From a virus (Duplodnaviria; Caudoviricetes): a stretch of DNA of 64,000 nt. Position 1 is the first letter of the stretch. Every line of letters begins with the position of its first letter. A program made the position numbers and the translations under genes. The notes under the pieces were generated by a model, which was not told where the DNA came from, did not search any database, and worked only from the letters and a program-made list of their open reading frames with translations. Location of the stretch: positions 1 to 64,000 of the IMG/VR virus record IMGVR_UViG_2854078061_000001; one strand, given 5' to 3'. Below are positions 11,936 through 48,338 of the stretch, piece by piece.

Positions 11936-12223
11936 TTACAGAAGTGATTCACAAACGCATTCCTGTTCTACAAAACTTTTGGGAATCAGCATTTGTTCTG
12001 TCCAATAAGAACCACAGCACTTTAGTTTTACAGTTTTTTGAGACCTAGAGTATTCTTTAATCTCAAATTCCGACCCAGCAAGGCGAACCATATTTAACGT
12101 TGGAGTTGCACGATAACCGGCATTTTTACCTCCAAATGTTTGATAGACCGTATTGATATTCAAATCTGGACGAACCACAACATGATCGCCTTGCTTAAAT
12201 CGAAGTGGAATTACATAATCCAT
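11936..12223 (-). CDS. SH3/KOW-like paralog with C-terminal CxCxxLL tag
   Basis: GDHVVVRPDL...WTEQM...ECVCESLL. Confidence 0.75.
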   Translation of the reverse strand: MDYVIPLRFKQGDHVVVRPDLNINTVYQTFGGKNAGYRATPTLNMVRLAGSEFEIKEYSRSQKTVKLKCCGSYWTEQMLIPKSFVEQECVCESLL

Positions 12224-12231
12224 AACAAACC

Positions 12232-12522
12232 TCACAAAAGCGATTCACAGTAACATTCATTGCCGATTTGGTCAGAAAACATGTCGTCTGTCCAGTAGCG
12301 ACCTCTTGCTCTGTATTTTTTACCATCGACCGTATCAACTATTTCTTCGATTTCGATAGTCTGTCCACAAAGCTCTATCATGTCTTTAGTTACAACATCT
12401 GAAACAACGTTCCTCCAAGGAGCGTTTTCTTTTCCACCTGATCGCATCCAATAACATTTTCTAAAATCTAAATCCTGGCGGACAATAACGACATCGCCTG
12501 CATGATATTTTGTATCTTGCAA
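12232..12522 (-). CDS. SH3/KOW-like paralog with CxCxxLL tag
   Basis: TTG start after GGAGG; GDVVIVRQDL...WTDDMF...ECYCESLL. Confidence 0.75.
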   Translation of the reverse strand: MQDTKYHAGDVVIVRQDLDFRKCYWMRSGGKENAPWRNVVSDVVTKDMIELCGQTIEIEEIVDTVDGKKYRARGRYWTDDMFSDQIGNECYCESLL

Positions 12523-12533
12523 CTTGTGCCTCC

Positions 12534-12806
12534 TTATAACAGAGATTCGCAGCAGCACTCATTGTTTGCCAAACCAGAAAACATGTCATCAGTCCATCTA
12601 AAATCATATGTTTCTTCTACGATATAGTGCCCGTTAGAAGAATAATCTTTAATATGAACCAACTGCCCATGAAGTTCCGACATATCCAATGTCACAATGT
12701 TACTGTTGGCTTTTGGATAAGGACCAGACCTCATATCGTAAAAGGCACCATACTTAAGATCATCTCGAACTAAAACAGCGTCGCCTATTTTATATCGATA
12801 CTCCAT
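12534..12806 (-). CDS. SH3/KOW-like paralog with CxCxxLL tag
   Basis: YRYKIGDAVLVRDDL...WTDDMF...ECCCESLL. Confidence 0.75.
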   Translation of the reverse strand: MEYRYKIGDAVLVRDDLKYGAFYDMRSGPYPKANSNIVTLDMSELHGQLVHIKDYSSNGHYIVEETYDFRWTDDMFSGLANNECCCESLL

Positions 12807-12814
12807 TTGACACC

Positions 12815-13105
12815 TCATAGCAGAGATTCACAATAGCACTCAGTTTCGTTCGCCAGACCAACAAACATATCATCTGTCCACAGGATTTTCTGATTCGTTT
12901 CTTTGATGATATATCGATTGCGGCGATACTCAAGAATCGTGACAACCGTTCCCTCCAAAGCTTTTCGTGTGCGAATCGTACATTCGTTCACGCAGATCGC
13001 ATTATCAAGCGGAGACTGACTTCCAGAGCGCATGTAGTATTCTTCGTTTTCTCGAATTTCATTGATCACTACGACACGATCACCCGGCTTATAACGATAA
13101 TCCAT
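12815..13105 (-). CDS. SH3/KOW-like paralog with CxCxxLL tag
   Basis: YRYKPGDRVVV...WTDDMF...ECYCESLL. Confidence 0.75.
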   Translation of the reverse strand: MDYRYKPGDRVVVINEIRENEEYYMRSGSQSPLDNAICVNECTIRTRKALEGTVVTILEYRRNRYIIKETNQKILWTDDMFVGLANETECYCESLL

Positions 13106-13113
13106 TTAGCACC

Positions 13114-13416
13114 TCACAGTAGAGATTCGCAGTAACATTCATTTTCGTTTACCAGACCAACGAACATATCGTCTGTCCAGAAATCAGCATCAGGAGCTTC
13201 CGCGATATGATATCCACCATTTTTATACGATTTAATCGTCACAATAGCTCCTGCAAAAGAGAGGTGTCGTTTGGTGCACGAGGCCCAGCCACCAACACGC
13301 GGCCCAGATCGCATCTTGTAACTATCACCATACGTGAGAGCTTCGTGCAGATCATTTTTTACAAGAACCTTGTCGCCGATTTTATACCTATATTCTGTAG
13401 GATAAGTTGCCATCAA
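13114..13416 (-). CDS. SH3/KOW-like paralog with CxCxxLL tag
   Basis: YRYKIGDKVLVKNDL...WTDDMF...ECYCESLL. Confidence 0.75.
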   Translation of the reverse strand: MMATYPTEYRYKIGDKVLVKNDLHEALTYGDSYKMRSGPRVGGWASCTKRHLSFAGAIVTIKSYKNGGYHIAEAPDADFWTDDMFVGLVNENECYCESLL

Positions 13417-15479
13417 ATCACCACTTTCAGAACTCGCTCGGTTGCCCCCTGTACCTTGACGATGAAGCTGTTGTGCTGCGTCTCAGAGAAGCCAACACCG
13501 GACAGCTGGTCATCGACGGACTGAACTGCCATCTGAGAGCCCAGTGCCTCAAACACACGCTTATGCTGCAGCAGGTCTGTCTTCAGGAATTCATTGTAGA
13601 AACCATTGGGCTTTTCCGGGTTGACGCAGTCCTTGAGCATGAAGAAGTAGTGACGGTTGCCATTGCCGGTCTGTTCGTCCCAGTAGTTTGGAGAGTACAT
13701 CGCCACAGACACAGGTACAAACTGATTGGAATTCACACCCCAGATCTCGCGGGTGCTGGTGGAACTGGGCAGCTGCTCCTTGATAGAGAACTTACCATCC
13801 TTCAGCGTGACTTTTGCCACGGCGACATTCTGACCACCATGCAGCGGCTTATCGTAGTTGAAAGAGTAGATGTTGCCATCGAATTCGATCTCAGCACGGA
13901 AACCAGTTTTACCGCCACGACTAGCAAAACAGTTCACATAGAAGCTGTACTCGCCCTCCTTCATCTTCTTAATGTCAGGCCAGGTGATGTTCTCGACCGC
14001 AGCCTTATCCCGCGAAGGATGAGTGATATCCACATCCAGGCAGCCATCAGTACGAGGGTGCCACTTGTTGCCGAAATAGATGTGATTCTTATCGGGTTCA
14101 ATGCAATGAGCATCTTCATCGTTTTCATCCCATTCACCCGGCACATCGTTCCACTGAATCGAGAAACGCAGCACGCCATCCACCTTACCGCCAGCAGCCT
14201 TAACGTTTTCGCGAATATCGCTGTCTGCTATATTACCGGTATAAGCCCAGCTGAAACCATTGGACCACTTAAACATGCTTGGCGCGCTCTTATCCTGCGG
14301 CGCAATCAGAGATACCATGTTCTTCGAGAAGCGATTCTCCATGAACAATTCCAGACCTGCCGCAGTAGGCAGAACTTCTTTGACAAACTTTTCGATGCCG
14401 ATTTCTTCTGCGCGGCCGAACTTCTTGGGATCAGTACCCAGAGATTTCGCCATTGCCTCAAACGGATTCGCAGCGCCCATCACCCGAGGAGCAGCATCAC
14501 GGTTACAGAACAGGATGTTGTTGGCGGTGATATCATCCAGAGTGGCAAACCGACGAGCCAGACTGTTCATATATCCCAGCTCAGTGACGGTTTTCTGTGC
14601 ATCCTCCAGCATCTTCTTGGTGAAAATCGCCTTAGGACGCTTATAGTTTGCAGGAGCAACCACCTTTTCAAAAGCGGTCACAGCAGCATCCACGTCCATG
14701 CCCTCGCTCAGGTTTACCAGCAGAGTACCGATTGCCGTATTGCGAATACGAAGCCGGTTCATCGATGCACCGCCGGGAGCCATCCAGACATAAGCGGACT
14801 TCTTTTCATCGGGCAGACGATAATACACCTGCTTATCGCTCTTGAAGCCACGAACCAAACCCTCGAACTCCTTGCCGCGATACAGGCTGTTCTGAGCAAT
14901 CAGCTCCAGCACAGTATCCACAGCGTCCATAGTCAGCTCTTCCAGAGAGCGCTTGAACACATTGGCAGAATCACGCCACTCGGCCATCTTGGTGGACACA
15001 TCATAGGAATTGACAATGAACCGCTGAGGAATCTCGACAGCGAAATGATCCCAGGTGCGAACCGCCTTATGATCAGCGTCATACTCATAGTTCATCTCTG
15101 TGCCGAACTTGCCATCAGAAATCATGTTACGGCTGACGTAATACGGATTCACAACGGCGCAGGTTTTCACATAGGCAGCCAGCGCATCCACAACCGGCTG
15201 ATAAACATCGGACTTGGTATCGAAATCCCAGACAGTGACCATCTGACCATCCATGAAAGAAACCAGCTTGCCGATATTCTTCACAAAACGACGGCAGCAG
15301 GAGCAATCATACTCACGCCGCTTACGGAAGGTAGAATTCGTACCAGCCGGGAAGCTGTCCAAATAGAGGTTATATAGCTTGTCCTCGTCGGCATTGGTGA
15401 TAAACAGAGGTGCGCCATCCTTGACCATCTCATCGAAATGCTTCTGAAGCAGAGTGCGGAATTCTTTGAAGTTTGCCAT
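13413..15479 (-). CDS. Large conserved phage protein (CxCC N-terminus; LDVD...VENI YfaP-like beta domain)
   Basis: 688 aa from MANFKEF; YDCSCCR and GCLDVDI..AVENITW. Confidence 0.65.
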   Translation of the reverse strand: MANFKEFRTLLQKHFDEMVKDGAPLFITNADEDKLYNLYLDSFPAGTNSTFRKRREYDCSCCRRFVKNIGKLVSFMDGQMVTVWDFDTKSDVYQPVVDALAAYVKTCAVVNPYYVSRNMISDGKFGTEMNYEYDADHKAVRTWDHFAVEIPQRFIVNSYDVSTKMAEWRDSANVFKRSLEELTMDAVDTVLELIAQNSLYRGKEFEGLVRGFKSDKQVYYRLPDEKKSAYVWMAPGGASMNRLRIRNTAIGTLLVNLSEGMDVDAAVTAFEKVVAPANYKRPKAIFTKKMLEDAQKTVTELGYMNSLARRFATLDDITANNILFCNRDAAPRVMGAANPFEAMAKSLGTDPKKFGRAEEIGIEKFVKEVLPTAAGLELFMENRFSKNMVSLIAPQDKSAPSMFKWSNGFSWAYTGNIADSDIRENVKAAGGKVDGVLRFSIQWNDVPGEWDENDEDAHCIEPDKNHIYFGNKWHPRTDGCLDVDITHPSRDKAAVENITWPDIKKMKEGEYSFYVNCFASRGGKTGFRAEIEFDGNIYSFNYDKPLHGGQNVAVAKVTLKDGKFSIKEQLPSSTSTREIWGVNSNQFVPVSVAMYSPNYWDEQTGNGNRHYFFMLKDCVNPEKPNGFYNEFLKTDLLQHKRVFEALGSQMAVQSVDDQLSGVGFSETQHNSFIVKVQGATERVLKVVI

Positions 15480-15501
15480 TGTTTTCATTCTCCTTTTTTG
15501 A

Positions 15502-15777
15502 TTACAGTAAACTGTCACAAATGCATTCGGTCGGGCTTTCAAACATCGACTCAGTCCATAGCCATGGGATTTCCCTTAGCGTATAGAAATCATCGTCATC
15601 GGAATATCCATTGACTTCATATGTATTGCCGCTATAGTTGACCATACTATCGTTACAATAAAGAGTTCGTTTACCTGCTGAAGGACCATACAGGACGGGA
15701 TAATCGCGGTCGCCAACCAAATCCGAACGGATCGTTACCAGATCACCCGGCTGATACAATAAACTATCCATCACCAT
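15502..15777 (-). CDS. SH3/KOW-like paralog with CxCxxLL tag
   Basis: GDLVTIRSDL...WTESMF...ECICDSLL. Confidence 0.75.
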   Translation of the reverse strand: MVMDSLLYQPGDLVTIRSDLVGDRDYPVLYGPSAGKRTLYCNDSMVNYSGNTYEVNGYSDDDDFYTLREIPWLWTESMFESPTECICDSLL

Positions 15778-15787
15778 CACATTCACC

Positions 15788-16063
15788 TCACAGCAAAGAT
15801 TCACAGCAGCATTCGTTTACCGACATCGGCTCAAACATTTCATCAGACCAGAACAGACAATCAGGGTCATTGTCGATTTTGTAATAACCCTCATCATAAG
15901 CGATGATTTTATGAACCGACCCTCTATATTTTCCGATATTATATACAGTCCCGGGTTCGCGTCCAGCTTTGGGACCGGAACGCATACGATACTGCATGTT
16001 TCGATCAATATCGTCGCGAACTTTTACGAGGTCGCCAATTTCATACAGGTATTTCCTTTTCAT
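15788..16063 (-). CDS. SH3/KOW-like paralog with CxCxxLL tag
   Basis: GDLVKVRDDI...WSDEMF...ECCCESLL. Confidence 0.75.
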   Translation of the reverse strand: MKRKYLYEIGDLVKVRDDIDRNMQYRMRSGPKAGREPGTVYNIGKYRGSVHKIIAYDEGYYKIDNDPDCLFWSDEMFEPMSVNECCCESLL

Positions 16064-16071
16064 GATTCACC

Positions 16072-16344
16072 TCACAGCAGCGGCGTGCAGATACATTCGT
16101 TGGGTGCTACGAACATCTCGTCCGTCCACCGATCGCAGCCATAATCTTCGTCGATGTAATAGCGGCCATTGCGCTTGCCGGCAATATGAACCACAGTGCC
16201 AAGCCGCTGCGCCTGAGAATAAGTAAGGGTGGCACTGACATCATTTGCTCGGTAACCGGAACGCATATAATACTGAACACCGCGCTCCAAATCAGGCCGA
16301 ACAAACACTTCCTCTCCGTTTTTGTACTGATAATATCTTGACAT
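16072..16344 (-). CDS. SH3/KOW-like paralog with CxCxxLL tag
   Basis: GEEVFVRPDL...WTDEMF...ECICTPLL. Confidence 0.75.
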   Translation of the reverse strand: MSRYYQYKNGEEVFVRPDLERGVQYYMRSGYRANDVSATLTYSQAQRLGTVVHIAGKRNGRYYIDEDYGCDRWTDEMFVAPNECICTPLL

Positions 16345-16365
16345 CGCTCTACTTCCTCCATTCCA

Positions 16366-16641
16366 TTACAGCAGTGAATCGCAAACGCACTCGTCCACGA
16401 CAAGCGGCTCAAACATTTCATCAGACCAGATGCAGCCATCGATTCCTTGTGCTTTGTAAACACCAGAATCTGATCTGATCTTTTCAATGACGATCTCTTG
16501 TCCTGCGTATTTTTTCATCCAGTCAAAAATCATCCAACGTTGGCCTTTGTTTTCGCCAGACAGCATTTTATAATCTTCATCTTCCGAGAGATCAAGCCGA
16601 ACGCGGACTCTGTCGCCAGGGTGATACATGTAATCAGTCAT
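16366..16641 (-). CDS. SH3/KOW-like paralog with CxCxxLL tag
   Basis: GDRVRVRLDL...WSDEMF...ECVCDSLL. Confidence 0.75.
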   Translation of the reverse strand: MTDYMYHPGDRVRVRLDLSEDEDYKMLSGENKGQRWMIFDWMKKYAGQEIVIEKIRSDSGVYKAQGIDGCIWSDEMFEPLVVDECVCDSLL

Positions 16642-17459
16642 TCTGTTCCTCCATCATCAAACCAGTCCGACACACGATCAGACATTTCGTCCATCTTATC
16701 CTGGTCGGCCTTGACATAATGCATCGTGACACGCTGGCTGCTATGCTTAAACTTTTCTTGAAGCATCTCGATCGTTTGCCCAGATGTACCAGCCTTTTTC
16801 GCTGTCTGAAGTGCAGCCATTGCATAGGTTTTGCGCATGGTATGAGTGGACAGATCAATATCCAGCTCACACGCCTTCCCTGCTTCTTTCAAGATCCGAT
16901 AGAATCCGCGCACTGTCAGAGGACCACCCTTGCGACTGCGGAACAGATAATCAGATTGACTGATTTCAAAATTCTGTTCATCGAAATAATCTTCCAAAAT
17001 GTCGGCTGCCATCTTGGGGATCTTGCACACATTGCGCTTACGAGTCTTTTCTTCGATCAGTTCGACATGCTCTTTCACACTGCCATCCTGTTCATAAACA
17101 TCTGCCGTTTTCAAGTTGAGAAGATCGCCACAACGAATGCCCAAACTGCACCCGAACACGAAAATCGCCTTGTTGCGTAGACGAAACTTGGGGTCGCCAT
17201 TGGAAGCGAGATAATTCGCCAGTTTCTGGAAATCCTCTTTGGAACGAATCGGATCAGCAGGCGAAGGTTTGATGCGGCCATCCTTTGTATAAAGGCTGTT
17301 GGTTGGCTTTGTCTTGTGCTTTTTCTTGCGAGCGGCAGCCACGATGTCCCAAATCATTTCCTTCAGCTCGGCTTCGCTCATGGTGATGTGAGCTTCGGAA
17401 CCAGGCTGTTGCGGGAACTGAACTACGCGATCCTTACGCTTACGTGCTGGTTCTGCCAT
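16638..17459 (-). CDS. Tyrosine recombinase (integrase/Xer family)
   Basis: GIRCGDLL, STHTMRKT, HSS..VTMHY catalytic residues. Confidence 0.88.
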   Translation of the reverse strand: MAEPARKRKDRVVQFPQQPGSEAHITMSEAELKEMIWDIVAAARKKKHKTKPTNSLYTKDGRIKPSPADPIRSKEDFQKLANYLASNGDPKFRLRNKAIFVFGCSLGIRCGDLLNLKTADVYEQDGSVKEHVELIEEKTRKRNVCKIPKMAADILEDYFDEQNFEISQSDYLFRSRKGGPLTVRGFYRILKEAGKACELDIDLSTHTMRKTYAMAALQTAKKAGTSGQTIEMLQEKFKHSSQRVTMHYVKADQDKMDEMSDRVSDWFDDGGTE

Positions 17460-17483
17460 TGATCTTCATCCTTTCTATGTAAA

Positions 17484-17687
17484 TCAATATCTATGTTGGT
17501 GTTTTTCTCTATAACGCAGGTTATGAGTGTATAGCTCTTTATCGAAATCGTTGATCATGCGACATTTCTCTTTGTACTGGTGTTGCTGTGTCAGCTCGAT
17601 TTCGACGTACTGCTGGCGCTCCTGACAGTGATCGTGACACCCGGGATAACGCTTGGGAGCCACACAATAATGGCATGGATTCTGCAT
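17484..17687 (-). CDS. Small Cys/His zinc-binding hypothetical protein
   Basis: PCHYC...GCHDHC. Confidence 0.55.
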   Translation of the reverse strand: MQNPCHYCVAPKRYPGCHDHCQERQQYVEIELTQQHQYKEKCRMINDFDKELYTHNLRYREKHQHRY

Positions 17688-17703
17688 TTTCAAATCATTC
17701 CAA

Positions 17704-17979
17704 TCATAGTAAACTTTCGCAAACACAAGCAGCGCTGTATTTGTCCTGCGTCAGGAACATCTGGTCCGTCCAGGCATATGATTTATTGTCTTCTTCAATG
17801 AAGTATTGACCATCAATATGTTCTGCGATATGAACGGTCTTACCTTCGAGCTCTTTCATTTCGTCGACAACAGTGTTGTATGTTTTTGGATTGGGGCCGG
17901 ACATCATAAAGTAGCTGCAATTCTTTCTGAGATCTCGCTTTACGACCACTGCGTCACCGACATCGTATCTGTATTTCAT
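17704..17979 (-). CDS. SH3/KOW-like paralog with CxCxxLL tag
   Basis: YRYDVGDAVVVKRDL...WTDQMF...ACVCESLL. Confidence 0.75.
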   Translation of the reverse strand: MKYRYDVGDAVVVKRDLRKNCSYFMMSGPNPKTYNTVVDEMKELEGKTVHIAEHIDGQYFIEEDNKSYAWTDQMFLTQDKYSAACVCESLL

Positions 17980-17987
17980 AGTTCACC

Positions 17988-18257
17988 TCACAGAAGGCTA
18001 TCACAGCAACACTCATTGATAGAAATAAACATCTCGTCGGTCCAGCCATAACCGATCTCGTTCAGAGTGTACCCACGTTCCCCATCGCGAGGACCTTGAA
18101 TCGTAAAAATCTTTCCAGCCTGATCCGCCATTTGATCAATAACACCGTAGTAGGTATTGTCCCCATTGTGGCGACCTGACCTCATACGATAAATTTCACT
18201 GCAGTTCAGATCCGGGCGAACCATTACTTTATCGCCTGGCTTATACATCAATTCCAT
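17988..18257 (-). CDS. SH3/KOW-like paralog with CxCxxLL tag
   Basis: YKPGDKVMVRPDL...WTDEMF...ECCCDSLL. Confidence 0.75.
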   Translation of the reverse strand: MELMYKPGDKVMVRPDLNCSEIYRMRSGRHNGDNTYYGVIDQMADQAGKIFTIQGPRDGERGYTLNEIGYGWTDEMFISINECCCDSLL

Positions 18258-18282
18258 ATTTCTACCTCATTTTCTTTTTATC

Positions 18283-18531: not shown

Positions 18532-18543
18532 TTTGTTTACTGA

Positions 18544-20461: not shown

Positions 20462-21142
20462 TCAGAACGCCATGACGCTCTCTTCACCCAGAATGAACGG
20501 GGTTGCAATGATCTGCTTCTTCAGCGGCTTGCCCTCCACGAAATTGATGAAGTTCGTAATCGCCAGACAGCAGATGAAACGAACGGTTGGTGCAACACCC
20601 TGAACGATGCCACATGCGGACACCGGCGTACTTACCTTTGCTTCCTCGTGAGTGAAGTTCATGGAGTTCTTCAGATTGTCGATCTGCTTACGATCCTTCC
20701 AATCGGCCGACCAGCACTGTGCATCATACAGGCCAGTGCGGATATCGAACACACCGAGCAGCTCAGGATTGTATTTGTTCTTCTCCAGGAACTGCTTGCG
20801 AATCTCGATGCTATCCACGGCCAGGAACACATAACCCTTGACGGTTTCGCCCTGCCAGCCATTGGGCATCAGGACCAGATCCTCTTTGATATCAGGATTC
20901 ACATTGCACAGGATGTTGCCCACAGCTTCCACCTTGGGATGAGCGATATCCTGCTGGAAAAACATCTGATTGACGATATTCTTGGGTTCGACAAAGTCCA
21001 TATCCCACAGAGTGAACTTGGTCAGACCGTATCGTGCCAGCAGTTCAGCCACAGTAGAGCCGACCGAACCACAGCCGATGATATGAATGCGACCCTTAAC
21101 AGACGCAGGGTCAAACACCATTTCGATTTTGCTCAGATCCAT
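20462..21142 (-). CDS. E1-like ThiF/MoeB family activating enzyme
   Basis: IIGCGSVGS, WDMDFVEPKNIVNQ, PKVEA, LAVDS, SACG. Confidence 0.9.
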   Translation of the reverse strand: MDLSKIEMVFDPASVKGRIHIIGCGSVGSTVAELLARYGLTKFTLWDMDFVEPKNIVNQMFFQQDIAHPKVEAVGNILCNVNPDIKEDLVLMPNGWQGETVKGYVFLAVDSIEIRKQFLEKNKYNPELLGVFDIRTGLYDAQCWSADWKDRKQIDNLKNSMNFTHEEAKVSTPVSACGIVQGVAPTVRFICCLAITNFINFVEGKPLKKQIIATPFILGEESVMAF

Positions 21143-21156: not shown

Positions 21157-22122
21157 TTAGTCCTGAAATGCTTCAGCGTAGGGATAGCAGCTCGAATTCC
21201 AATTGTTCATCAGGTCATTCGGATTCTCCTGATAATACTTCATCAGATTGGATTCGCTTCCCTTGCTCTTGGCTGAATCGATCTTAGGGGCGGCTCCACC
21301 CGTGACAGTTTTCAGCGCCGGGTTCGTCGTGGCTGCCGGTTTCGTTTCTGCTTTTGTTTTCGTGGACGCGGCTGCGGTGTTTGTGTTACCAACGAACGCG
21401 CCTCCCCGACAAGCTGTTGTACCCGCGCTGTAGCTGCCGGAGTAAGCTGCACCATTGTAGTTGCCGCTGTAGCCACTGTATGTAGTTGTGACCGGCTTTT
21501 GGACGAGCGCTTCCGCCTGTTCGAGAAACCCTTTCGTATCGGCCTCTCCAATCGTCACTTTGACATCATCGCCGCTGTAGATGACATTGTCCGCCATGTC
21601 CACAACACGGACGTTATACTCCCGCCGCTTGTTCCAGATCATAAAGACGTAGTAATCCTCAGAGCTCAGAGTATCAATGAGATCCCACTGATTCTGCATA
21701 TCCACACCGCTGGGAGAAGTGCTCATGTTCACATGACTGTGTCCCTGGAACCGCAGCGTATTAAAGGATTCATCGTCCAGCTCATACAGCCAGGTCGTAT
21801 ACTTTTCCTGGTCCGTATTCACTGTTGCGCCCGTGACCTGCTGCGGATAAACCAGGATCTTGGTGATTTGGAAGTGAGTCTTATCAATGCGATTCACCAG
21901 ACCGTGCCAGGCGACCTCGGTACTGAAGTGATCGATCAGGGCACACATCTCGTGATAAGCTTCCAGAGTGAAATTCACCTCGACTGCGTCCTTGGCAGGC
22001 TTGGAAAAATTCTTGTTAAAGGAGAACTTATCCGCCTGCAGATTGCCCAACGCAGAAGCCTGTGCATAGAACTCCTGCAAAATCCCTTGGATCAGTTCGT
22101 CATTCATCTTAACCGGCTGCAT
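21157..22122 (-). CDS. JAB/MPN metallopeptidase
   Basis: TEVAW and GHSHVNMSTSPSGVD (HxH..PS..D) motif; low-complexity C-terminal tail. Confidence 0.82.
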   Translation of the reverse strand: MQPVKMNDELIQGILQEFYAQASALGNLQADKFSFNKNFSKPAKDAVEVNFTLEAYHEMCALIDHFSTEVAWHGLVNRIDKTHFQITKILVYPQQVTGATVNTDQEKYTTWLYELDDESFNTLRFQGHSHVNMSTSPSGVDMQNQWDLIDTLSSEDYYVFMIWNKRREYNVRVVDMADNVIYSGDDVKVTIGEADTKGFLEQAEALVQKPVTTTYSGYSGNYNGAAYSGSYSAGTTACRGGAFVGNTNTAAASTKTKAETKPAATTNPALKTVTGGAAPKIDSAKSKGSESNLMKYYQENPNDLMNNWNSSCYPYAEAFQD

Positions 22123-23797: not shown

Positions 23798-24028
23798 TTA
23801 ACGGGCGTTGTCCATCTTCTGAACACAGACCAGATAAGCCTTCTCGGTAACGTGCATATCGGCAAAAGTCTTGTCCATGTCGCCAGGCTGCAGAACACAG
23901 CCATCCAGAGAAGTCTGACCAGCAGAGTAGTTGATATCGTTCTCCTCCAGGCACTGACGCAGGGTAGTGTCCTCAGTAGCCATGACAGTCTTACGGTTGG
24001 TGTTGGTACCCACAGTGATCTTCAGCAT
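23798..24028 (-). CDS. Prokaryotic ubiquitin-like (beta-grasp) protein
   Basis: 76 aa with pattern LKITV...TTLRQCL...LDG..L...DKTFAD......L; heads the E2-JAB-E1 operon; ends KMDNAR. Confidence 0.7.
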   Translation of the reverse strand: MLKITVGTNTNRKTVMATEDTTLRQCLEENDINYSAGQTSLDGCVLQPGDMDKTFADMHVTEKAYLVCVQKMDNAR

Positions 24029-24834: not shown

Positions 24835-25083
24835 TTAAAGCAGAGACTCGCAGCGGCATTCACTGGTTGACTCTACAGGTGCCCACCAACCATCATGCAG
24901 GTGCTCGATCAGGCGAGATCCTGGCTTGTTCCATGTGTACCCATCGCAGAGCTGCACTTGAGGACAATCGGTATCTTCTGTATACCCAACAACGATTCCC
25001 TCCACACCCTCATTGGCATCACCGGGACCCCACGGAGACTCAAGCCTTACGCGATCACCGATACAGAATTTTCTTTCGTCCAT
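24835..25083 (-). CDS. Divergent SH3/KOW-like protein with CxCxxLL tag
   Basis: IGDRVRL...ECRCESLL. Confidence 0.7.
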   Translation of the reverse strand: MDERKFCIGDRVRLESPWGPGDANEGVEGIVVGYTEDTDCPQVQLCDGYTWNKPGSRLIEHLHDGWWAPVESTSECRCESLL

Positions 25084-40303: not shown

Positions 40304-40330
40304 AAGTTTTACCTCTCGTTTGATATGTTT

Positions 40331-41386: not shown

Positions 41387-41412
41387 AGAAAAGCCGCCCA
41401 CGGCGGGCGGCT
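41387..41412 (-). terminator. Intrinsic terminator after 41421 gene
   Basis: AGCCGCCC/GGGCGGCT stem followed by U-tract on - strand. Confidence 0.65.
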
Positions 41413-41420
41413 GGAGATTC

Positions 41421-43013
41421 TTATTTGATACGGGCGGCGATTGCGTCAAGATATGCGGCACACTGTACACTGTCCCTGTATCCATCAGCGGCGGCAATAT
41501 CGGCACGGGCGGCGGCAATGAGACGGGATACACGCATTTTATACCACTTTTCGGCGGGGTACAGCTGAGCAAGGCGGGCGGCTGTTTGTTCCATGGTATA
41601 CCCGTCAATGATACAAGCCACGGCGGCACGGGAACGGGCATCCTGTACAGTGTTTAGGATATCGGCACGGGCGGCGGTATAGTGCTCATCATATACAGCG
41701 GCATTATCCACGGCCTTGTAAAGGGCGGCATTTTCGGCGCTTTGCACGTCTTTTGCACGGCGTGCGGCCCCGTCAATATCGGCGGCATGGACATTGCCGC
41801 CGTGGTCAACACCACCAATATAAGTGCGGGCGGCACTACTCATTACAATTACCAGATTGCGGCGGCGGTATTTTTTCAGCTGTTCTTTTGCATCCCGGTA
41901 CGGCGCAAAATCCATCAAACGGGCATACCCCGCACGGCGGGCGGCATCTTTTGCGGCATCAACAGCGGCACGGGCGGCCTTTAAGTCCTCTTTTTCGGAC
42001 TTGTTGCGGGCAACTAGAGTATTGATTAAGTCGTCACAATCAATATTTTCCGGTGCTTTACCGCCGTTTTTTACAGTCCAGCGGGCAAATTGTGTAAGTA
42101 ACTCATACCCGGCAATATAGGCGGCACTCTTGATATCAGCAAAGTCCGAAATAGTCGTATTGTCGCACTTTTCAGCGGCGGCAATACTGTCCTTTATGGA
42201 CTGCAAAGCGGCCTTTTCGGCGGCGGTATTTTCGGCAATATAGCGTGTTTTGACGTGTCCGGTCAAGCCTAAAATTTTTGCGTCTCTTTTAGCAAGGGTT
42301 TGGGCGGCATCCAGAACGGCGGCGGCATCCTCATATTGTGTAGCAAGGTTTTCCATATTTTGGGCGGCTGTATTCCGCTTTGCATCCCGCACGTTGTCCC
42401 ATTGCAAGGTTAAAAAACGGGGGGCGGCACTATCCTCAAAGCGGCGTTTAACCACGTTGCACGCAACGGCACCCGCCAAACCCATCAAAGGCGATACAGC
42501 ACCAGTGTGCATGGTATGTTGTGCCGCATAGCTGGACTTATACAAGGGTGCGGGGGCCGCTGTTGGGGCGGCGGCTTTGATACCGGGATGATACGATACA
42601 GGCACACTTTCAGCCGTACCGCCCGTATAAGGCACGGCGGGGCGGCGGTATGCGGGGGCATTATCCACGGGGGCAAGGTATGCGGGGCCGTCGGGCTGGA
42701 TATAACGGTATCCCTCAACGGTACGGGTCAAAACGGGGCGGGGGTAGACACGGGCAACAGCAACGGCGGCGGCGTGCCGGGTGAAACGTCCTGTAATATC
42801 ATCAGTAATGAGCATAGCGGCAATACGAACAGCGGGGGCAATGGGGGTAATGAGCACGGCGGCGGGGGCGGTATGAGTGGCGGCAATGCGGGCGGCACGC
42901 TGGACACGGGCGGCGGCACGGCGGGCAATACGGCGATTACGGGCGGCAATACGGGTAGAAGTGGAACGGCGTACAGTTGCGGGGGCGCTGGATTTTTCGG
43001 TCAAGTACAGCAT
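41421..43013 (-). CDS. Ala/Arg-rich protein with C-terminal sigma-4-like HTH
   Basis: AAATGAGG RBS; GYTMEQTAARL...VSRLI near the C-terminus. Confidence 0.6.
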   Translation of the reverse strand: MLYLTEKSSAPATVRRSTSTRIAARNRRIARRAAARVQRAARIAATHTAPAAVLITPIAPAVRIAAMLITDDITGRFTRHAAAVAVARVYPRPVLTRTVEGYRYIQPDGPAYLAPVDNAPAYRRPAVPYTGGTAESVPVSYHPGIKAAAPTAAPAPLYKSSYAAQHTMHTGAVSPLMGLAGAVACNVVKRRFEDSAAPRFLTLQWDNVRDAKRNTAAQNMENLATQYEDAAAVLDAAQTLAKRDAKILGLTGHVKTRYIAENTAAEKAALQSIKDSIAAAEKCDNTTISDFADIKSAAYIAGYELLTQFARWTVKNGGKAPENIDCDDLINTLVARNKSEKEDLKAARAAVDAAKDAARRAGYARLMDFAPYRDAKEQLKKYRRRNLVIVMSSAARTYIGGVDHGGNVHAADIDGAARRAKDVQSAENAALYKAVDNAAVYDEHYTAARADILNTVQDARSRAAVACIIDGYTMEQTAARLAQLYPAEKWYKMRVSRLIAAARADIAAADGYRDSVQCAAYLDAIAARIK

Positions 43014-43060
43014 TTTTATAAACCTCATTTCTAAAAGTTTGTAGACGGGCGGCGGCGTGG

Positions 43061-43333
43061 TTATTTCAGTATGATACAGGTGCACGCACAACGAACAGCG
43101 GCGGGGGCGGTAAATTCCGTGTGAATCATCTGTTTAAACGTGTCCAGAATTGTGAACGTTCCCCAAACATTGGGATACAAGAACAGTCCATCAATAGGCA
43201 GATACACGCCCCGCCCCCGCTCAAGTTCAGCGGCAAAAGCGGACAGTTCAGACGGCGTGCACGTCCACAAAGTGCAAAGGTGCATTGACCGGACACGGCG
43301 AAAACGGCGGGGCAATTTGTTGTTGTTTCTCAT
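43061..43333 (-). CDS. Hypothetical protein
   Basis: Same TTTTAGAAATGAGG RBS leader as the 43013 gene. Confidence 0.5.
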   Translation of the reverse strand: MRNNNKLPRRFRRVRSMHLCTLWTCTPSELSAFAAELERGRGVYLPIDGLFLYPNVWGTFTILDTFKQMIHTEFTAPAAVRCACTCIILK

Positions 43334-44087
43334 TGAATAACCCTCATTTCTAAAAAAGTGTGATGCCAGCCCACCACGGCGGCGGGCCTGTCTATATAGT
43401 ACAGCCACAAAAATACATGGTAACGCAATACAACAAAAAAACAGCAAAGAAATTTTAAGGCACAACAGGCAGTTGTAAAAATCCAGGCAGAATTCCAGAT
43501 TTCCAGCACTCGAATACTACCTAATAACGGAAGGTAGCATTCACCGAAAACCCGCATGAATCCTAGACTTTTCGGGCCATACCGGGGGGATGTTAAAAAT
43601 TGGAAAGGGGGTCGAGTTTGGGTCGTGCGTACCAGTTATTCCATCTCCCCAGCCCGTACCAAATCACCCGGTTTTCGCACATCGCCTGCCCCTCACTCGC
43701 CTCCTATACGCAACAATCATCCATCCGCATTCGCTCCAAATTCGCAGTCACCAGCACCCAAAATCACCTGTTGATCGCCCATAAATCACCAATCATCTCC
43801 CCTATCTGCGCACCCGTAAAACGCCCATATTTAACCCCCGATTTCGTCTCCTGTAAATAACGTATTATCGTTATAAAATGCTCCCAGTCAATAATGATTT
43901 TCATCCCAATTTTCACGCAGTTGTGTCTCGATCACCGTGTAATAGCGTCTCAAAAGCGCCGTAGAAACGCTTAAAATGCATTATTTTTGCTCATTTTTGC
44001 TTAATTTTAATAATTTTCTGCCATTTTTACTATATTTTATTTATTATTACAACAGATTATTTTATTCCGGTATTTTGCACAAAACTA

Positions 44088-44116
44088 TTGCTTTTACCGC
44101 GCCATGGGTGTATAAT
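44088..44116 (+). promoter_or_regulatory. Sigma-A type promoter for rightward arm
   Basis: TTGCTT-17 nt-TATAAT with AT-rich upstream region. Confidence 0.7.
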
Positions 44117-44221
44117 AAGGTATAAAGAAAAAGCCCGCAGTTCTCTCCACAGCTGCGAGCTTATATTTTCAGTAGTCAATCACACTTTACAATATCATTA
44201 TCAAAGGAGGATCACCCGTTA

Positions 44222-45613
44222 ATGAAGTTTTATGACACCTCCGCGCTTCTTGATTTGGGAGCCGCCGCTTTCGAACCTGCCAGTGCAACAGCCTCTGGTG
44301 CAACAGAGCCGTTTCTGATTGCCGATATGACGCTGCACGAGCTGGAAGAGATCAAGACAAGCGGCAAGAAGAGCGAAGAGATCCGCTATAAGGCCCGTAC
44401 TGTAACCCGCCTGCTGGCCGAGCATCACGACGACAACACCTTTATGGTAGTGGCAGTCCCCATGTCTTCCCTGTTCTATATCCTGGATGGCAAACCGATC
44501 AGCGATAACAACGACGCGACGATCATGGCAACCGCCCGCTGGTATCTGGACGAGATGAAGCGCAATCTGAATGACGCGATTGAAGCCGGACTCCCGGAAG
44601 CACAGCGACAGATCCAGGCCAACATTGATTCTTTCAGGTTCGTCACCAGCGACCTAAGTTGCGCCAATATCGCCAGCGGCATTCTTGATCTGCCGATCGA
44701 GTTCTCCTATCCCGATGCAGCAGCAAGCGCCAATAATAACTACACTGGCTAGACTGAAGTCACTCTTGATGAAGGCGGCGAGGAAGCCATGGCGATGGCA
44801 TATCAAACCCACGATGAAGGCTATACATATCAGAATCTGTTTGACACTCCAGTGAATGGCTATCTGATTGTTCGTGATCCAGACACAGTAGACGATGATA
44901 TGCCGGCAGGCAATGCGGTAGGCTGGCTACGATGGAATGGCAAGAAATATGTACCACTCAAATACAAAAAGATCAGTAATCGCTTCACTGGCGACGTAAA
45001 ACCACTCAATGACCAACAGAAGCTCGCATTTGATATGCTGCAGAACGACGATATTACAGTTAAAATGCTGGCTGGAACATTCGGCAGCGGCAAGACAATG
45101 CTTATGGTGTCCTCTGCCATTGATATGATCGAGAAGCACAAGGTTGAGAAGCTGATCTGGATTCGCAATAACATCGAAGTCAAGAATACCAAGGAGTTGG
45201 GTGCACTACCTGGCACTCTACTAGAGAAGCTCGGCGCTGCTTCTTTTGCTGGACCTCTGGCTGATCACTTGGGCGGCGAAGCTGGTTTGGAATACTGGAT
45301 CAATAATGGGCAGGTAGAAGTAGCTCACCTTGGATTTATTCGTGGCCGCGACTACAAGAACGCAATTATTATGGTTTCAGAGGCTGAGAATCTGACCAAA
45401 GAGCATGTACAGCTGCTACTCGGCCGTGTTGGTGAAGGATCTATGCTGTGGCTTGATGGCGATCTGAAGCAGACTGACGAGGCCGTGTTTGAAAATAACA
45501 GCGGTATGCGTAAGGCAATTCAGTGTCTGGCTGGCAACCCGCACTTTGGATATGTCTACCTGAACAAGACAGAACGCAGCGAGACCGCACAACTGGCTGA
45601 CCTGTTAGACTAA
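44222..45613 (+). CDS. phoH: PIN + PhoH-family ATPase (in-frame TAG at 44750)
   Basis: YDTSALL PIN start, GTFGSGKT, IRGR, SEAEN, GDLKQTD; both halves in one frame. Confidence 0.88.
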
Positions 45614-45627
45614 GGGGGCACAGCAGA

Positions 45628-45909
45628 ATGATAGAAGTAAGAATAGACGGATTACGACCAATGGATTACATCTCTCCTACTGGCGACTGGAACTATGAAG
45701 CGATTGACGGTTTAGCGAAAGAGTTGTGTGACCGACTTCGAGAAGTTGAGACAGAACAGATACTGGAGGAATTCAAAAAATATATAGAAAACCAACATTC
45801 TGACAATATGGTTATATTAAACCAATTGCAAGCTCAATTGAATAATATAGCTACACACCGATATCTGATTACACCATTTAACAGAGGCATAGTAGCATGG
45901 GACAGATGA
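45628..45909 (+). CDS. Hypothetical protein
   Basis: ORF in operon. Confidence 0.55.
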   Translation: MIEVRIDGLRPMDYISPTGDWNYEAIDGLAKELCDRLREVETEQILEEFKKYIENQHSDNMVILNQLQAQLNNIATHRYLITPFNRGIVAWDR

Positions 45910-46226
45910 GCAAAGCTAGTGAAGAAATATTTTATACAACCAATGAGTATCTGACCTATAAGATGTCTCGATATTTTGACACTTATGTTCTGTTGCTTGG
46001 TTTAAAAGACAACTCAGGATTCTTCATGGATTTTGTCGGTGGAGCAGGAGTCCATTATCATCTATATAAGCAGACGGGACCTGCTGTATTTGCATTTATC
46101 GATGATAATTATAAGGTACTTCGTGGAGACGACGCAGAATGGATTACTAATCTTGCTTTGAAAATATGCCAACAATATGACGAACAGCTGTTCAACGAAC
46201 AATGTGTCTGTGAGACTTTGCTATAA
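45906..46226 (+). CDS. Hypothetical protein with CxCxxLL tag
   Basis: Ends EQCVCETLL. Confidence 0.65.
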   Translation: MSKASEEIFYTTNEYLTYKMSRYFDTYVLLLGLKDNSGFFMDFVGGAGVHYHLYKQTGPAVFAFIDDNYKVLRGDDAEWITNLALKICQQYDEQLFNEQCVCETLL

Positions 46227-46240
46227 CAGGAGAAGAAATC

Positions 46241-46660
46241 ATGCGCGTTTTATTCGTAAGGTCATCGATCTATGACACAGTATGCGACTGGTATGAACGC
46301 ATGGATACTGTGCAAAAGCATCGCAAGGAGACCGCAATCTGTAAATCACCCGAAGATTTTTGGGATATATTCAATAAAGATAAATTCGGTGCACAATATA
46401 CGACATTCTATTTTGACGATAGGTTGGCGCTGACCGATACTTTTGAATTTTTCAAAGAGATCGCGCGGTTGTATGGTGAAGAGGATGCGAAATATATTTC
46501 AGAAAATAAAATGCGGCGGATCACCATGAACTATTTAATGAACAACAATCAGTTTGACTTGTTCCAGCAGTTCTCCATCACACCCGAATGTCTGGACGAT
46601 GTAATCCATGATGCTCTGGCTGATCAACAGTGTGAATGTGTGTGCAGACCGCTATTGTAA
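46241..46660 (+). CDS. Hypothetical protein with CxCxxLL tag
   Basis: Ends ECVCRPLL. Confidence 0.65.
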   Translation: MRVLFVRSSIYDTVCDWYERMDTVQKHRKETAICKSPEDFWDIFNKDKFGAQYTTFYFDDRLALTDTFEFFKEIARLYGEEDAKYISENKMRRITMNYLMNNNQFDLFQQFSITPECLDDVIHDALADQQCECVCRPLL

Positions 46661-46674
46661 AGGAGAGGCAAAAT

Positions 46675-47139
46675 ATGGAAAGAATACTAACGCCACGAGG
46701 CGGTGGACGTACATATGCGATATGCGAATACGCTGTCAAGAACAATTGCAATATCTTGGTGCCGATGGGCGGGACGGCTATATTATGTGCACAGGACTAT
46801 ATCAAGGAAATCGCAAGGAATCTTGATATTCAATATTAGGGGTATAGGGTTGATCATCAATGCCTTATAGTAGATTTACAAAGCAGAGCTCGCGGAGAAT
46901 ACAGTATTCACGTGATAACAACTACTTGTCCTCCCGATAATTATCGTGGATTGCACTTAGAGGATAAGCCACTTGTTGTTGATGATATTGACCGATGCTT
47001 TAAGTTCATGTGCTTCCCGAATGTGCGAATTGATGCCTGTTCTCTGATGACATATGATCCGAGCGAGGTTGCGTTTACACCGCCAACTGCACCTCAAGAA
47101 GTGCAGCGGGATGAATGCGTGTGTGACAGCTTGGTATAA
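46675..47139 (+). CDS. Degenerate P-loop-like protein with tag (in-frame TAG at 46837)
   Basis: PRGGGRT, LVVDDID; ends ECVCDSLV; open frame across TAG. Confidence 0.65.
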
Positions 47140-47153
47140 CAGAGGTGCCAACA

Positions 47154-47462
47154 ATGGATAAATTTGATACGCTACATGATGATCGCACGCTGAGATGGTG
47201 TAAGTACAGATATCCCGATGATATCAACAGTGGCGAGTTTACTTTTGACTGGGCGAAAGATGGATTCACATGGACTCTGCCAAGCGATAAACCACTGCGA
47301 ACCACAAACGAAATCGTATCTTACATTGACGCAAATGGTAATCAGCGTGAAGTTCAAGCGGAAGTAAAATACTATGGAATGGGACACGACACGCTGTGGA
47401 CGATTGCAATTCCTAATGTTGTCGAGGCAGAAAACGAGTGTGTCTGCGAATCACTATTATGA
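47154..47462 (+). CDS. Hypothetical protein with CxCxxLL tag
   Basis: Ends ECVCESLL. Confidence 0.65.
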   Translation: MDKFDTLHDDRTLRWCKYRYPDDINSGEFTFDWAKDGFTWTLPSDKPLRTTNEIVSYIDANGNQREVQAEVKYYGMGHDTLWTIAIPNVVEAENECVCESLL

Positions 47463-47470
47463 GGCACGAT

Positions 47471-47752
47471 ATGAACAATCAATTATTGATACCCGATGAT
47501 AAGATATACATATATCCATCAGATTGGAAGCAGCCTGTACGAATTCAATTTGAAAATAGATCGACCATAGACACTGTAAATCATGGCAATTCACATCACA
47601 CTATTCAATTCGACAAATGGGTTGATTATAACACCATAGTTACTGATGAAACTTTACAAAAGCTTATCAAAGACTATATATCGAAAAATTTTCCAAAAGA
47701 AGAATACAGTGTATCTATTCACAATGAGTGTTACTGTGAGAGCCTATTATGA
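47471..47752 (+). CDS. Hypothetical protein with CxCxxLL tag
   Basis: Ends ECYCESLL. Confidence 0.65.
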   Translation: MNNQLLIPDDKIYIYPSDWKQPVRIQFENRSTIDTVNHGNSHHTIQFDKWVDYNTIVTDETLQKLIKDYISKNFPKEEYSVSIHNECYCESLL

Positions 47753-48063
47753 AAAAATATATCAGTGAAGAAGTACAACAACAAGCAGCCCTACAATTAC
47801 ATATCGAAATTGAAAATGATTGTAAAATAAAATTTGATAATTTCAGATTTCAAATAGACGAAGACGATATGACGGTTTGCCGCTATGGAGAACCAGATGA
47901 AACGTTTGTAGTTAAAAGGAAAGTAAGACTTTTCTTATTAAATAACGGATTTGAATTCGAAATTGCTGGGCCTTATGCTGAACAGATGTACAGACGATAT
48001 CTTAAACTGATAAATGGAGATATCAATACAAATAGTGAATATTATTGTGAAAGTCTATTGTAA
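47749..48063 (+). CDS. Hypothetical protein with variant tag
   Basis: Ends EYYCESLL. Confidence 0.65.
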   Translation: MKKYISEEVQQQAALQLHIEIENDCKIKFDNFRFQIDEDDMTVCRYGEPDETFVVKRKVRLFLLNNGFEFEIAGPYAEQMYRRYLKLINGDINTNSEYYCESLL

Positions 48064-48068
48064 AGAAG

Positions 48069-48338
48069 GTGAAAATATTGGATGAACAAGAGCTAACTGT
48101 AAGAGTTGAAGAAATAGATAATCATTTATTTTCTATGCACGATACAGTGAACCATGCGATTATTAAAGTCGATGAAGCAAATAATCTGTCGCATTTTGCA
48201 GTAGAACGTATAGATACTATAAGAGCAACAACAATTTCGTATCAAACTGCGATTGATCAATTACAAGCTCGAATCGCAGAACTTGAACATAAAATCGATT
48301 TGCTGACAGGGCCATGTATTTGTGAGCCGCTGCTATAA
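48069..48338 (+). CDS. Coiled-coil protein with CxCxxLL tag
   Basis: Ends PCICEPLL. Confidence 0.65.
   Translation: MKILDEQELTVRVEEIDNHLFSMHDTVNHAIIKVDEANNLSHFAVERIDTIRATTISYQTAIDQLQARIAELEHKIDLLTGPCICEPLL

Follow-up and report, generated by a model that had tools for sequence, protein, structure and literature searches.

Unrelated small proteins of a gut-phage clade share a C-terminal tag that occurs in three genome-wide dialects and is a candidate docking peptide

Background

The capsid targeting sequence of phage T4 is an N-terminal peptide of about 10 residues that is removed by the prohead protease. This targeting peptide is the only feature common to the otherwise unrelated internal proteins that carry it (PMC3012670). 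The tail described here resembles it as a short terminal peptide that would act as an address label on diverse, fast-evolving small phage proteins, but it is no N-terminal leader: it is C-terminal, stands directly before the stop codon and needs a free end.

Short C-terminal tails that dock on a common hub include the T4 clamp-binding tails, the acidic tails of T7 gp2.5 and gp4, the SSB tail and the ClpX-binding peptide of SspB. In each, a single short peptide, C-terminal and flexibly linked, brings unrelated proteins to one partner, as would be the case here. Such hubs serve only a few proteins of replication or proteolysis and their partner is known, whereas the present tag is found on some 20-25 accessory proteins per genome and switches between dialects.

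A conserved extreme C-terminus on variable small proteins is also the hallmark of the FxSxx-COOH peptides (Haft & Basu 2011), according to Kaur et al. 2020 (PMC7159879). One of the tail dialects reported below, F-x-S-L-L, fits this pattern exactly, and variable small proteins with a conserved end occur in both groups. FxSxx-COOH peptides are actinobacterial and are cleaved from short precursors, whereas the tagged phage proteins are folded, and neither a match to the family HMMs nor radical-SAM/SPASM, vWA or TPR companions were found for them. Our literature searches for a described tag of the same kind returned only this motif.

Results and discussion

A C-terminal tag on nineteen open reading frames

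The window is a stretch of 64,000 nucleotides from a Caudoviricetes genome (positions 1 to 64,000 of IMG/VR record IMGVR_UViG_2854078061_000001). A sequence-only reading of this DNA had named 19 ORFs with a shared C-terminal tag, and all of them are closed by the motif [CY]-x-C-[EDTR]-[STP]-L-[LV]-stop at the places given there, except that the first rightward gene begins at 45897 and not at 45906. A regular-expression search of the kind suggested by that reading, run on a six-frame translation of the phage's 108,149-bp genome, finds 19 copies of [CY]xC[EDTR][STP]L[LV], every one directly before a stop codon; a rough estimate from amino-acid frequencies puts the chance C-terminal matches at fewer than 0.001 among 1130 ORFs. 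Within these 19 tags Cys at -5 and Leu at -2 are without exception, and Cys at -7 gives way to Tyr once (in the gene at 47749), as had been noticed.

The tag is written in varying synonymous codons in the window, and 379 distinct tags from relatives use all six Leu codons, both the TCN and the AGY boxes for Ser, and both Cys codons. This codon use shows that selection is on the peptide, as already argued from the window's own genes. Because the motif occurs only before stops, its codons are free and its dialects differ in the peptide itself, chance and a DNA-level signal are ruled out as explanations.

Two familiar C-terminal signals can be compared directly. The Cys residues lie at -5 and -7, not exactly four residues from the end, and the tag is thus no canonical CaaX prenylation site, a point on which the earlier assessment was correct. 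The S-L-L-COOH end fits the class I PDZ ligand pattern (X-[ST]-X-Φ-COOH) in 16 of the 19 ORFs, the other three having Pro at -3, but conservation of the tag reaches -7/-8, beyond a minimal PDZ ligand. PDZ_2 (PF13180), the sole PDZ model searched, gives no match in the 73%-complete genome to which the window belongs.

Unrelated bodies with a predicted disordered tail

Eleven of the tagged genes, all on the minus strand between 11936 and 18257, form one family of SH3-like paralogues by BLAST. They lie at 11936..12235 (ending ECVCESLL), 12232..12558 (ECYCESLL), 12534..12818 (ECCCESLL), 12815..13105 (ECYCESLL), 13114..13416 (ECYCESLL), 15502..15804 (ECICDSLL), 15788..16063 (ECCCESLL), 16072..16344 (ECICTPLL), 16366..16641 (ECVCDSLL), 17704..17979 (ACVCESLL) and 17988..18257 (ECCCDSLL). 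All eleven bodies have the character of a small SH3-like beta-barrel (Mib repeat / YorP-like) with SH3_15 similarity. In the AF2 model of 12534..12818 (pLDDT 87) the barrel spans residues 1-83 at high confidence, and the tail, residues 84-94, has a pLDDT of about 53; the model places the tag on a tail that is predicted to be disordered. The best Foldseek match of this model, a weak one by its E-value of 0.086 (probability 0.96), is YorP 2HEQ, with Mind bomb repeats next. Distant homologues of the domain carry 2-6 tandem copies, and these multi-repeat proteins match PF18346.

The remaining eight tagged ORFs have no mutual BLAST similarity, and profile-profile comparison yields weak links only, in keeping with the earlier statement that the seven rightward proteins are not visibly homologous. 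The 82-aa protein encoded at 24835..25083 on the minus strand (ECRCESLL) can be linked to the SH3-like family by profile comparison, though only weakly. On the plus strand, proteins with unrelated bodies are encoded at 45897..46226 (109 aa, QCVCETLL), 46241..46660 (139 aa, ECVCRPLL), 47145..47462 (105 aa, ECVCESLL), 47438..47752 (104 aa, ECYCESLL) and 47749..48063 (104 aa, EYYCESLL), and the last gene of this array, 48069..48338 (89 aa, PCICEPLL), has weak matches to coiled-coil families. The third gene is a 167-aa ORF with one in-frame TAG (46636..47139, ECVCDSLV); the 75-aa ORF that it contains (46912-47139) is probably its C-terminal part, reached by readthrough of that TAG.

Homologues of the 46636..47139 family in tagless phages end at the body, with neither the Pro/Thr-rich linker nor the tag. 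Across the relatives described below the tag closes 12 body families, between which profile-profile comparison finds only three weak links. Together with the disordered tail, these observations bear out the proposal that the tag is a portable label.

One tag dialect per genome, three among the relatives

We identified 361 distinct tagged proteins of these 12 families in about 45 related gut-phage contigs of 70-150 kb. The tag is kept in 201 of 208 matches to the product of 12534..12818, and in 100% of those to the seven rightward families bar one. It occurs in three dialects: the acidic dialect A of the window's phage (E-C-x-C-[ED]-S-L-L), the neutral dialect B (Φ-x-F-x-S-L-L) and the basic dialect C ([LF]-x-C-[KRH]-S-L-L). 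A genome uses one dialect throughout: its SH3 arrays, the locus at 24835, the rightward array and indeed all tagged families at all loci carry it, and only S-L-L-COOH is constant across the three. The dialects were not part of the sequence-only reading and are a new result.

Sister phages have Phe or Val at -5 and Leu, Phe or Val at -7 on all of their tagged proteins, and the charge at -4 is reversed between them. In dialect B the residue at -5 is always Phe, and elsewhere Val or Tyr is sometimes found there; the claimed invariance of this Cys and of the penultimate Leu holds inside the window, but for the Cys it does not extend to the relatives. The exchange can be seen most closely in the orthologue of 13114..13416 in phage G004, where the DNA is about 87% identical up to the WTDDMF codons and then continues into a dialect-B tail (…DLRFESLL). 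Each of the three dialects corresponds to one of three sub-clades of the phages, and shared descent therefore contributes to the uniformity within each.

The dialects bear directly on the possible chemistry of the tag. A metal or lipid attachment site had been suggested from the window, but sister phages replace the Cys at both -5 and -7 on all tagged proteins. With Phe at -5 in dialect B, thiol chemistry is not the general function, and we reject it as such in any of its forms (metal site, lipid or thiolactone), the Cys being replaced in dialects B and C. In the window's phage, the conserved Cys pair of dialect A, with Glu on either side, could still serve some additional chemical purpose.

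It is very unlikely, for similar reasons, that the tail is the substrate motif of a modifying enzyme in the style of RiPP precursors, in which the -5 Cys of dialects A and C would give an AIP-like thiolactone with the C-terminus or bind metal. Staphylococcal AIP rings start at a Cys five residues ahead of the C-terminal carboxylate and have hydrophobic end residues, but the -5 Cys is general in these two dialects only, and AgrB has no match in three complete tagged phages. For dialect B, the F-x-S-x-x-COOH end seen in G004, for which the window's phage has Cys in place of Phe, is the signature given for actinobacterial FxSxx-COOH precursors in PMC7159879. Against this, five dialect-B and five dialect-A proteins give zero NCBIfam matches at E up to 10, and thus none to the family model (TIGR04268 / FxsB), and the tagged proteins, at 80-200 aa, are folded domains rather than short precursors. 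Nor do the expected partners appear: in complete tagged relatives VWA_2 has no match and TPR_12 no significant one, and the sole radical-SAM matches in tagged phages come from small ORFs (about 170-180 aa); the one in G006 lies near NrdD and is read as a putative NrdG, and there is no radical-SAM/SPASM partner among them.

The SH3-like (Mib-repeat) folds are known to bind peptides, and the tails might then bind one another or the SH3-like bodies, building one multivalent assembly of tagged proteins that has no separate reader. The tandem copies in distant homologues would suit such an arrangement, and the four-gene tagged cassette of phage G026 would be self-sufficient. We nevertheless give this reading very little credence: zero positions of the SH3 bodies switch with dialect, repulsion would be expected between tails of the same charge in dialects A and C, and the tail is not docked on its own body in the AF2 model. 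The SH3 body was rejected as tag reader because it has no dialect-specific residues.

Docking on a single reader

On balance, we consider that the tag is probably a short docking peptide at the C-terminus, recognized by a single putative partner that co-evolves with it. Its general form would be Φ(-7)-x-[C/F](-5)-x-S-L-L-COOH, a short linear motif that terminates a flexible linker and has been added to numerous unrelated small accessory proteins in a single gut-phage clade with genomes of roughly 145-150 kb. S-L-L and the free carboxylate would sit in a fixed pocket of a single reader protein, and positions -4 to -9 would touch a reader surface that differs between phage lineages, which would explain why all tagged proteins of a genome use one dialect. 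Each body, whether an SH3-like barrel or one of at least eight other folds, would have its own job, and the tag would gather all of them at one place or machine; capsid loading, tethering to an unfoldase or protease, and assembly on a hub are candidate outcomes. We infer the single reader from this pattern. More tentatively, we propose that the tails may constitute a protein-sorting code of the phage, in which a dedicated, fast-evolving putative reader, either a phage product or a defence or hub protein of the host, recognizes Φ-x-[C/F]-x-S-L-L-COOH and gathers 20-25 accessory proteins, for example as capsid cargo for injection, loaded much as in encapsulins, with reader and tags switching together.

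If one reader serves 20-25 small proteins, then roughly a tenth of the genes in an abundant gut-phage clade would have a common fate, which could be packaging, tethering or turnover, and the tagged genes are otherwise without annotation. The switch between acidic Cys-rich, basic and Phe-based dialects may be viewed as a natural specificity experiment, and the dialects as a possible orthogonal set of short tags with which proteins could be directed in Firmicutes infected by phages.

No reader was found among the phage-encoded candidates searched: beyond the PDZ, vWA and TPR models already mentioned, peptidase S41 and ClpP have no match in complete tagged relatives, and a beta-clamp domain was not found in G006 and G026. 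The missing proteases bear on a quite unlikely variant in which an unfoldase or protease would be the docking site for the tail, and so for the proteins and anything bound by their bodies, or in which the tail would be an ssrA-type degron limiting how long the proteins last. A free hydrophobic C-terminus on a flexible linker is indeed the layout of ssrA tags and of the SspB adaptor with its C-terminal ClpX-binding peptide, and a gene for a classic-clade AAA ATPase (10411-11514) is found one gene downstream of the SH3 array. However, a conserved host protease would not need the charge reversal at -4 between sister phages, recombinant phage G026 has tags without this AAA gene, and the gene belongs to a 709-aa/127-aa/AAA module that is also present in Bacillus phage BC01, with no tags found nearby.

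The gene for the 709-aa protein of this module lies within the SH3 array. Homologues of the protein are widespread in other phages, including Vi1-like and phiCbK-like ones, and its AF2 model (pLDDT 35) is uninformative on the fold. The protein was considered as a candidate tag-specific partner; module and homologues are also found outside tagged phages.

A further role, proposed in the sequence-only reading, is as a handle for the neighbouring E1/E2/JAB enzymes. In such a scheme the free C-terminus would be activated by the E1 and the tagged proteins attached to target molecules, in the manner of CBASS Cap2 acting on the CD-NTase tail. We confirmed a ThiF-type E1 at 20462-21142, whose neighbours have weak likeness to Prok-E2_D and Prok-JAB. 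The expected co-occurrence was borne out for the E1, present in 23 of 24 tagged genomes, and the cluster genes are among those more diverged between dialects (43-67% identity versus about 70-95% for most shared genes). A necessary link is countered, however, by complete phage G026, in which four type-A tagged genes are intact but homologues of the E1, E2-like, JAB-like, Ubl and RT genes are undetectable, and by 34 loci of other phage groups that have a JAB-like gene and no tag arrays within 10 kb; both observations speak against dependence of the tag on a co-encoded E1/E2. The 76-aa Ubl has its own conserved end (…DNAR) in dialects A and B, and a Leu-Leu C-terminus is unlike those of known E1 substrates. 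We consider conjugation highly improbable.

Capsid cargo is a subtype of the docking reading, in which the tail would bind either the scaffold or the capsid protein on its inner side, and the small proteins would be packed and injected with the DNA. Encapsulin cargo-loading peptides are likewise C-terminal, on flexible linkers, and contain a Ser-Leu element. The internal proteins of T4 are basic, whereas the tagged proteins are mostly acidic. Like the latter, the T4 set is diverse, with the targeting peptide as its sole common feature (PMC3012670), and a phage-encoded reader would account for co-evolution of the dialects. Seven tagged genes head the rightward arm, which continues into the terminase gene, but the other twelve are in the leftward arm and adjoin early-looking NAD-salvage, retron-type RT and Ubl genes. 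As a specific destination we regard the capsid as unlikely.

Occurrence outside the tagged clade

Tagless relatives G031 and G035 have only about a quarter of their genes in common with the tagged phages, and for this reason presence/absence comparison with them is uninformative. Bacterial genomes showed no enrichment of the tag (22 matches in 596 Gb versus an estimated 35 or so expected by chance), nor did Faecalibacterium (9 single matches in 91 genomes); it is thus not equally common in unrelated proteomes, which would have spoken against a special label. In one Faecalibacterium MAG an RHH-like ORF ends in a solitary type-A tail, which may be a chance match. One MAG labelled Peptococcaceae contains pieces of the window's phage.

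A modular C-terminal tag on unrelated phage proteins

Here we report that a seven-residue C-terminal tag is carried by proteins with unrelated bodies in this phage, a well-founded observation that reaches far outside the window. In the window genome, 19 ORFs (12 leftward and 7 consecutive rightward) end in [CY]-x-C-[EDTR]-[STP]-L-[LV]-stop, and six-frame translation of the whole genome yields 19 occurrences of this pattern, all 19 with a stop codon directly after. The source record (108,149 bp in IMG/VR, with the window covering the first 64 kb) is classed as a provirus and estimated to be 73% complete. The tagged proteins are mostly acidic, and the codons behind the fixed tag residues are variable. 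Relatives provide 379 distinct tags, which between them use all six Leu codons, both Ser boxes (TCN, AGY) and both Cys codons, and this variation behind fixed residues places selection on the peptide, as had been proposed in the sequence-only reading.

All 19 endings listed in that reading were recovered where it had placed them, but its 75-aa ORF at 46912-47139 most likely forms the last part of a 167-aa ORF (46636-47139) continuing through an in-frame TAG, the long form being present in relatives. A single in-frame TAG is found in many genes of the rightward arm, which begins at 43878. The stops after the 379 distinct tags are TGA (213), TAA (165) and TAG (1), and the rarity of TAG as a stop, together with the in-frame TAGs of the rightward genes, is consistent with TAG reassignment.

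Eleven of the leftward genes, in 11936-18257, are paralogues with 25-46% identity. An AlphaFold2 model of their SH3-like body shows a confidently predicted small beta-barrel (residues 1-83, mean pLDDT 87), followed by a low-confidence tail whose last eleven residues are at about 53. Its closest solved folds are YorP of B. subtilis SPβ and the SH3-like repeats of Mind bomb and HERC2, all weak matches (best E-value 0.086). Searching 1.84 billion representative proteins with an HMM yielded 2219 homologues, many consisting of 2-6 tandem domain copies and some matching Pfam SH3_15. The other eight tagged proteins, encoded by the gene at 24835 and the rightward array (45897-48338), show no BLAST similarity to one another, in agreement with the earlier view that the seven rightward proteins are not visibly homologous to each other; no significant Pfam or PHROG family was found for any of the eight.

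The tag behaves as a module. Up to the WTDDMF codons, the DNA of the gene at 13114-13416 matches that of its orthologue in G004, a complete and syntenic 150-kb relative, at about 87% identity, which collapses beyond them in the linker and tag. In tagless phages, members of the 167-aa family stop directly after the body, without the Pro/Thr-rich linker of about 25 residues and the tag. The tag is a disordered C-terminal peptide grafted onto unrelated bodies, and the core of the original proposal, a portable peptide label, stands on the unrelated bodies, the peptide-level selection and the modular tail.

Distribution among phages and bacteria

Relatives were sampled with a degenerate nucleotide pattern that encodes the tag and that matched at least 107 stretches on at least about 45 contigs from gut phages, each 70-150 kb long. 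The matched stretches listed hold at least 506 tagged ORFs (at least 361 distinct) in at least 12 body families, between which profile-profile comparison linked three pairs, all weakly; the tag is kept by almost all homologues. The sequence-only reading had asked whether the tag is equally common in unrelated proteomes, and it is not: in 596 Gb of bacterial and archaeal genomes the pattern matched 22 times, against about 35 expected by chance on our own estimate, with real-looking tagged ORFs in three of the matched stretches only. Two of these lie on one contig of a metagenome-assembled genome (MAG) holding this same phage, and the third is a lone Faecalibacterium MAG ORF. Since the tag is not enriched in 91 Faecalibacterium genomes either, these counts indicate an ending specific to the phage clade rather than a common bacterial one.

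Three tag dialects

An S-L-L ending is found on nearly all single-domain SH3-like homologues in the 50%-identity library, many of which lack one or both Cys. The Cys-less tags were traced to G004, in which Φ-x-F-x-S-L-L is found on every SH3-like paralogue, on three genes at the 24835 position, and on seven small proteins, most of them different, encoded between PhoH and the RNA polymerase. Across 80 loci around a conserved 709-aa gene we identified three dialects, each uniform per genome: E-C-x-C-[ED]-S-L-L in the window phage (dialect A), Φ-x-F-x-S-L-L as in G004 (dialect B), and [LF]-x-C-[KRH]-S-L-L (dialect C). Only S-L-L-COOH is constant; counted from the C-terminus, positions -5 and -7 are hydrophobic throughout (Cys, Phe, Leu, Val or Tyr), and -4 changes from acidic in dialect A to basic in dialect C.

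Metal binding, lipidation and thiolactone formation are excluded as a common role because Cys is replaced genome-wide in relatives by Phe, Leu or Val; the earlier suggestion of a metal or lipid attachment site is therefore abandoned. The E-C-x-C-E of dialect A could nonetheless have gained an additional property.

The tag is under strong purifying selection, and between sister phages the dialect changes on all carriers together. The tag would then be a docking motif recognised by one co-evolving partner, the simplest explanation and the one towards which we lean; this partner may be a host protein. Candidate readings of partner or fate include capsid loading, an AAA+ tether or degron, a modifying enzyme, and self-assembly.

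The search for a partner

The neighbouring conjugation-type genes had been put forward as users of the tag as a handle. A ThiF-type E1 was confirmed in the window genome, its neighbours resemble Prok-E2_D and Prok-JAB only weakly, and 23 of the 24 tagged genomes examined encode E1. The exception, G026 (IMG/VR contig 3300045988_112321), is built on the backbone of a tagless and largely different group of phages and has 48 of its 201 genes in common with G006, a complete dialect-A phage. Its recombinant tract at 95286-98535 comprises the C-terminal 80% of the 709-aa gene (93% identical to the window), four type-A SH3-tag genes and a 127-aa gene; the four are intact and were acquired via a recombination joint within the 709-aa gene. 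No homologue of E1, E2-like, JAB-like, Ubl, RT or the 367-aa AAA protein was detectable in G026, and 34 loci of other phage groups with a JAB-like homologue have no tag arrays within 10 kb. The proposed E1/E2/JAB link is therefore weak, with the caveat that the G026 tract could be a recent hitch-hiking event.

The SH3-like body itself was rejected as a dialect-specific reader, as a comparison of 305 distinct SH3-like proteins spanning all three dialects shows no body position that switches with dialect. A PDZ-type S-x-L-COOH ending, also suggested earlier, holds as a class I pattern in 16 of the 19 tags, but PDZ_2 has no match in the window's own, 73% complete genome. A clamp domain was not found in G006 or G026, nor were VWA_2, TPR_12, AgrB, ClpP, S41 or FxsB-like radical-SAM found in complete tagged relatives.

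Comparison with known terminal peptides

The principle of a shared terminal address peptide holds for C-terminal tails in T4 and T7, both clamp-binding and acidic, and for the tail with which SspB binds ClpX. The tag resembles in this principle the T4 capsid targeting sequence, in which unrelated phage proteins have a terminal address peptide alone in common (PMC3012670). The principle is thus already established, and the three genome-uniform dialects are the new finding here. As confirmed, the tag is not a canonical CaaX ending. The nearest published motif is that of the FxSxx-COOH peptide class (PMC7159879), which dialect B matches letter for letter. We do not assign the tag to this class, because the family model has no match and the radical-SAM/SPASM, vWA and TPR companions were not found in tagged phages.

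Genomic setting and additional observations

The leftward tagged genes lie between an NAD-salvage set (NAMPT, NadE, Prs-like) and the retron-type RT and Ubl-like cluster. Within their SH3-tag array, a small 273-aa tyrosine recombinase (16638-17459, minus strand; Phage_integrase, E 1e-17), conserved in dialects B and C at 56-58% identity, may have a part in array shuffling. In the adjoining cluster, the 321-aa JAB-like protein (21157-22122, minus strand) is a member of a large family that carries no Pfam annotation, with 1428 homologues at E up to 0.001 in several gut-phage groups. The 76-aa Ubl-like protein (23798-24028, minus strand, and 2585-2833 of locus L134) ends in …DNAR, not GG, in dialect A and B phages, so the Ubl system has its own conserved, unusual C-terminus.

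Another candidate considered as the partner is a three-gene module on the minus strand that flanks the tag arrays, namely the 709-aa protein (phrog_1735, 13413-15542), the 127-aa protein (phrog_2018, 11532-11915) and the AAA ATPase (phrog_2376, 10411-11514). Bacillus phage BC01 has the same module in the same order (48-54% identity for the two larger genes), with no tags nearby. For the 709-aa protein, neither Pfam nor NCBIfam nor PDB sequences gave a match and the AlphaFold2 model (pLDDT 35) gives no usable fold; its gene has homologues in 550 phage records, among them Vi1-like, phiCbK-like and Microcystis phages.

On either side of the seven rightward genes are a PIN-PhoH gene and an RNA polymerase (49187-51730, plus strand), and the terminase gene is located downstream of them. 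The polymerase matches Pfam RdRP (PF05183), and we take it to be YonO-like. YonO and YorP, the latter being the top structural hit for the SH3-like body, are both proteins of SPβ, a prophage of B. subtilis, and this hints at remote SPβ-like ancestry. G006 encodes Pol III alpha, a DnaB-like helicase, a ligase, NrdD and a Tn916-type integrase, a gene set that points to a Firmicute host.

The lone Faecalibacterium ORF (G001:C1:64014-64430, MAG UMGS1404) encodes 138 aa with a ribbon-helix-helix-like N-terminus and a long low-complexity linker, ending in …NECVCESLL (type A). It lies in a 55% GC region unrelated to the phage, beside an ORF with a serine recombinase-like N-terminus, and its ending could be due to chance or be a tag on another mobile element. 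On contigs C57, C68 and C86 of G002, the MAG holding this phage, pattern matches translate as CICTLLL, CYCAMLL and CCCTMLV before the stop, and may be tag variants with Leu or Met for Ser at -3.
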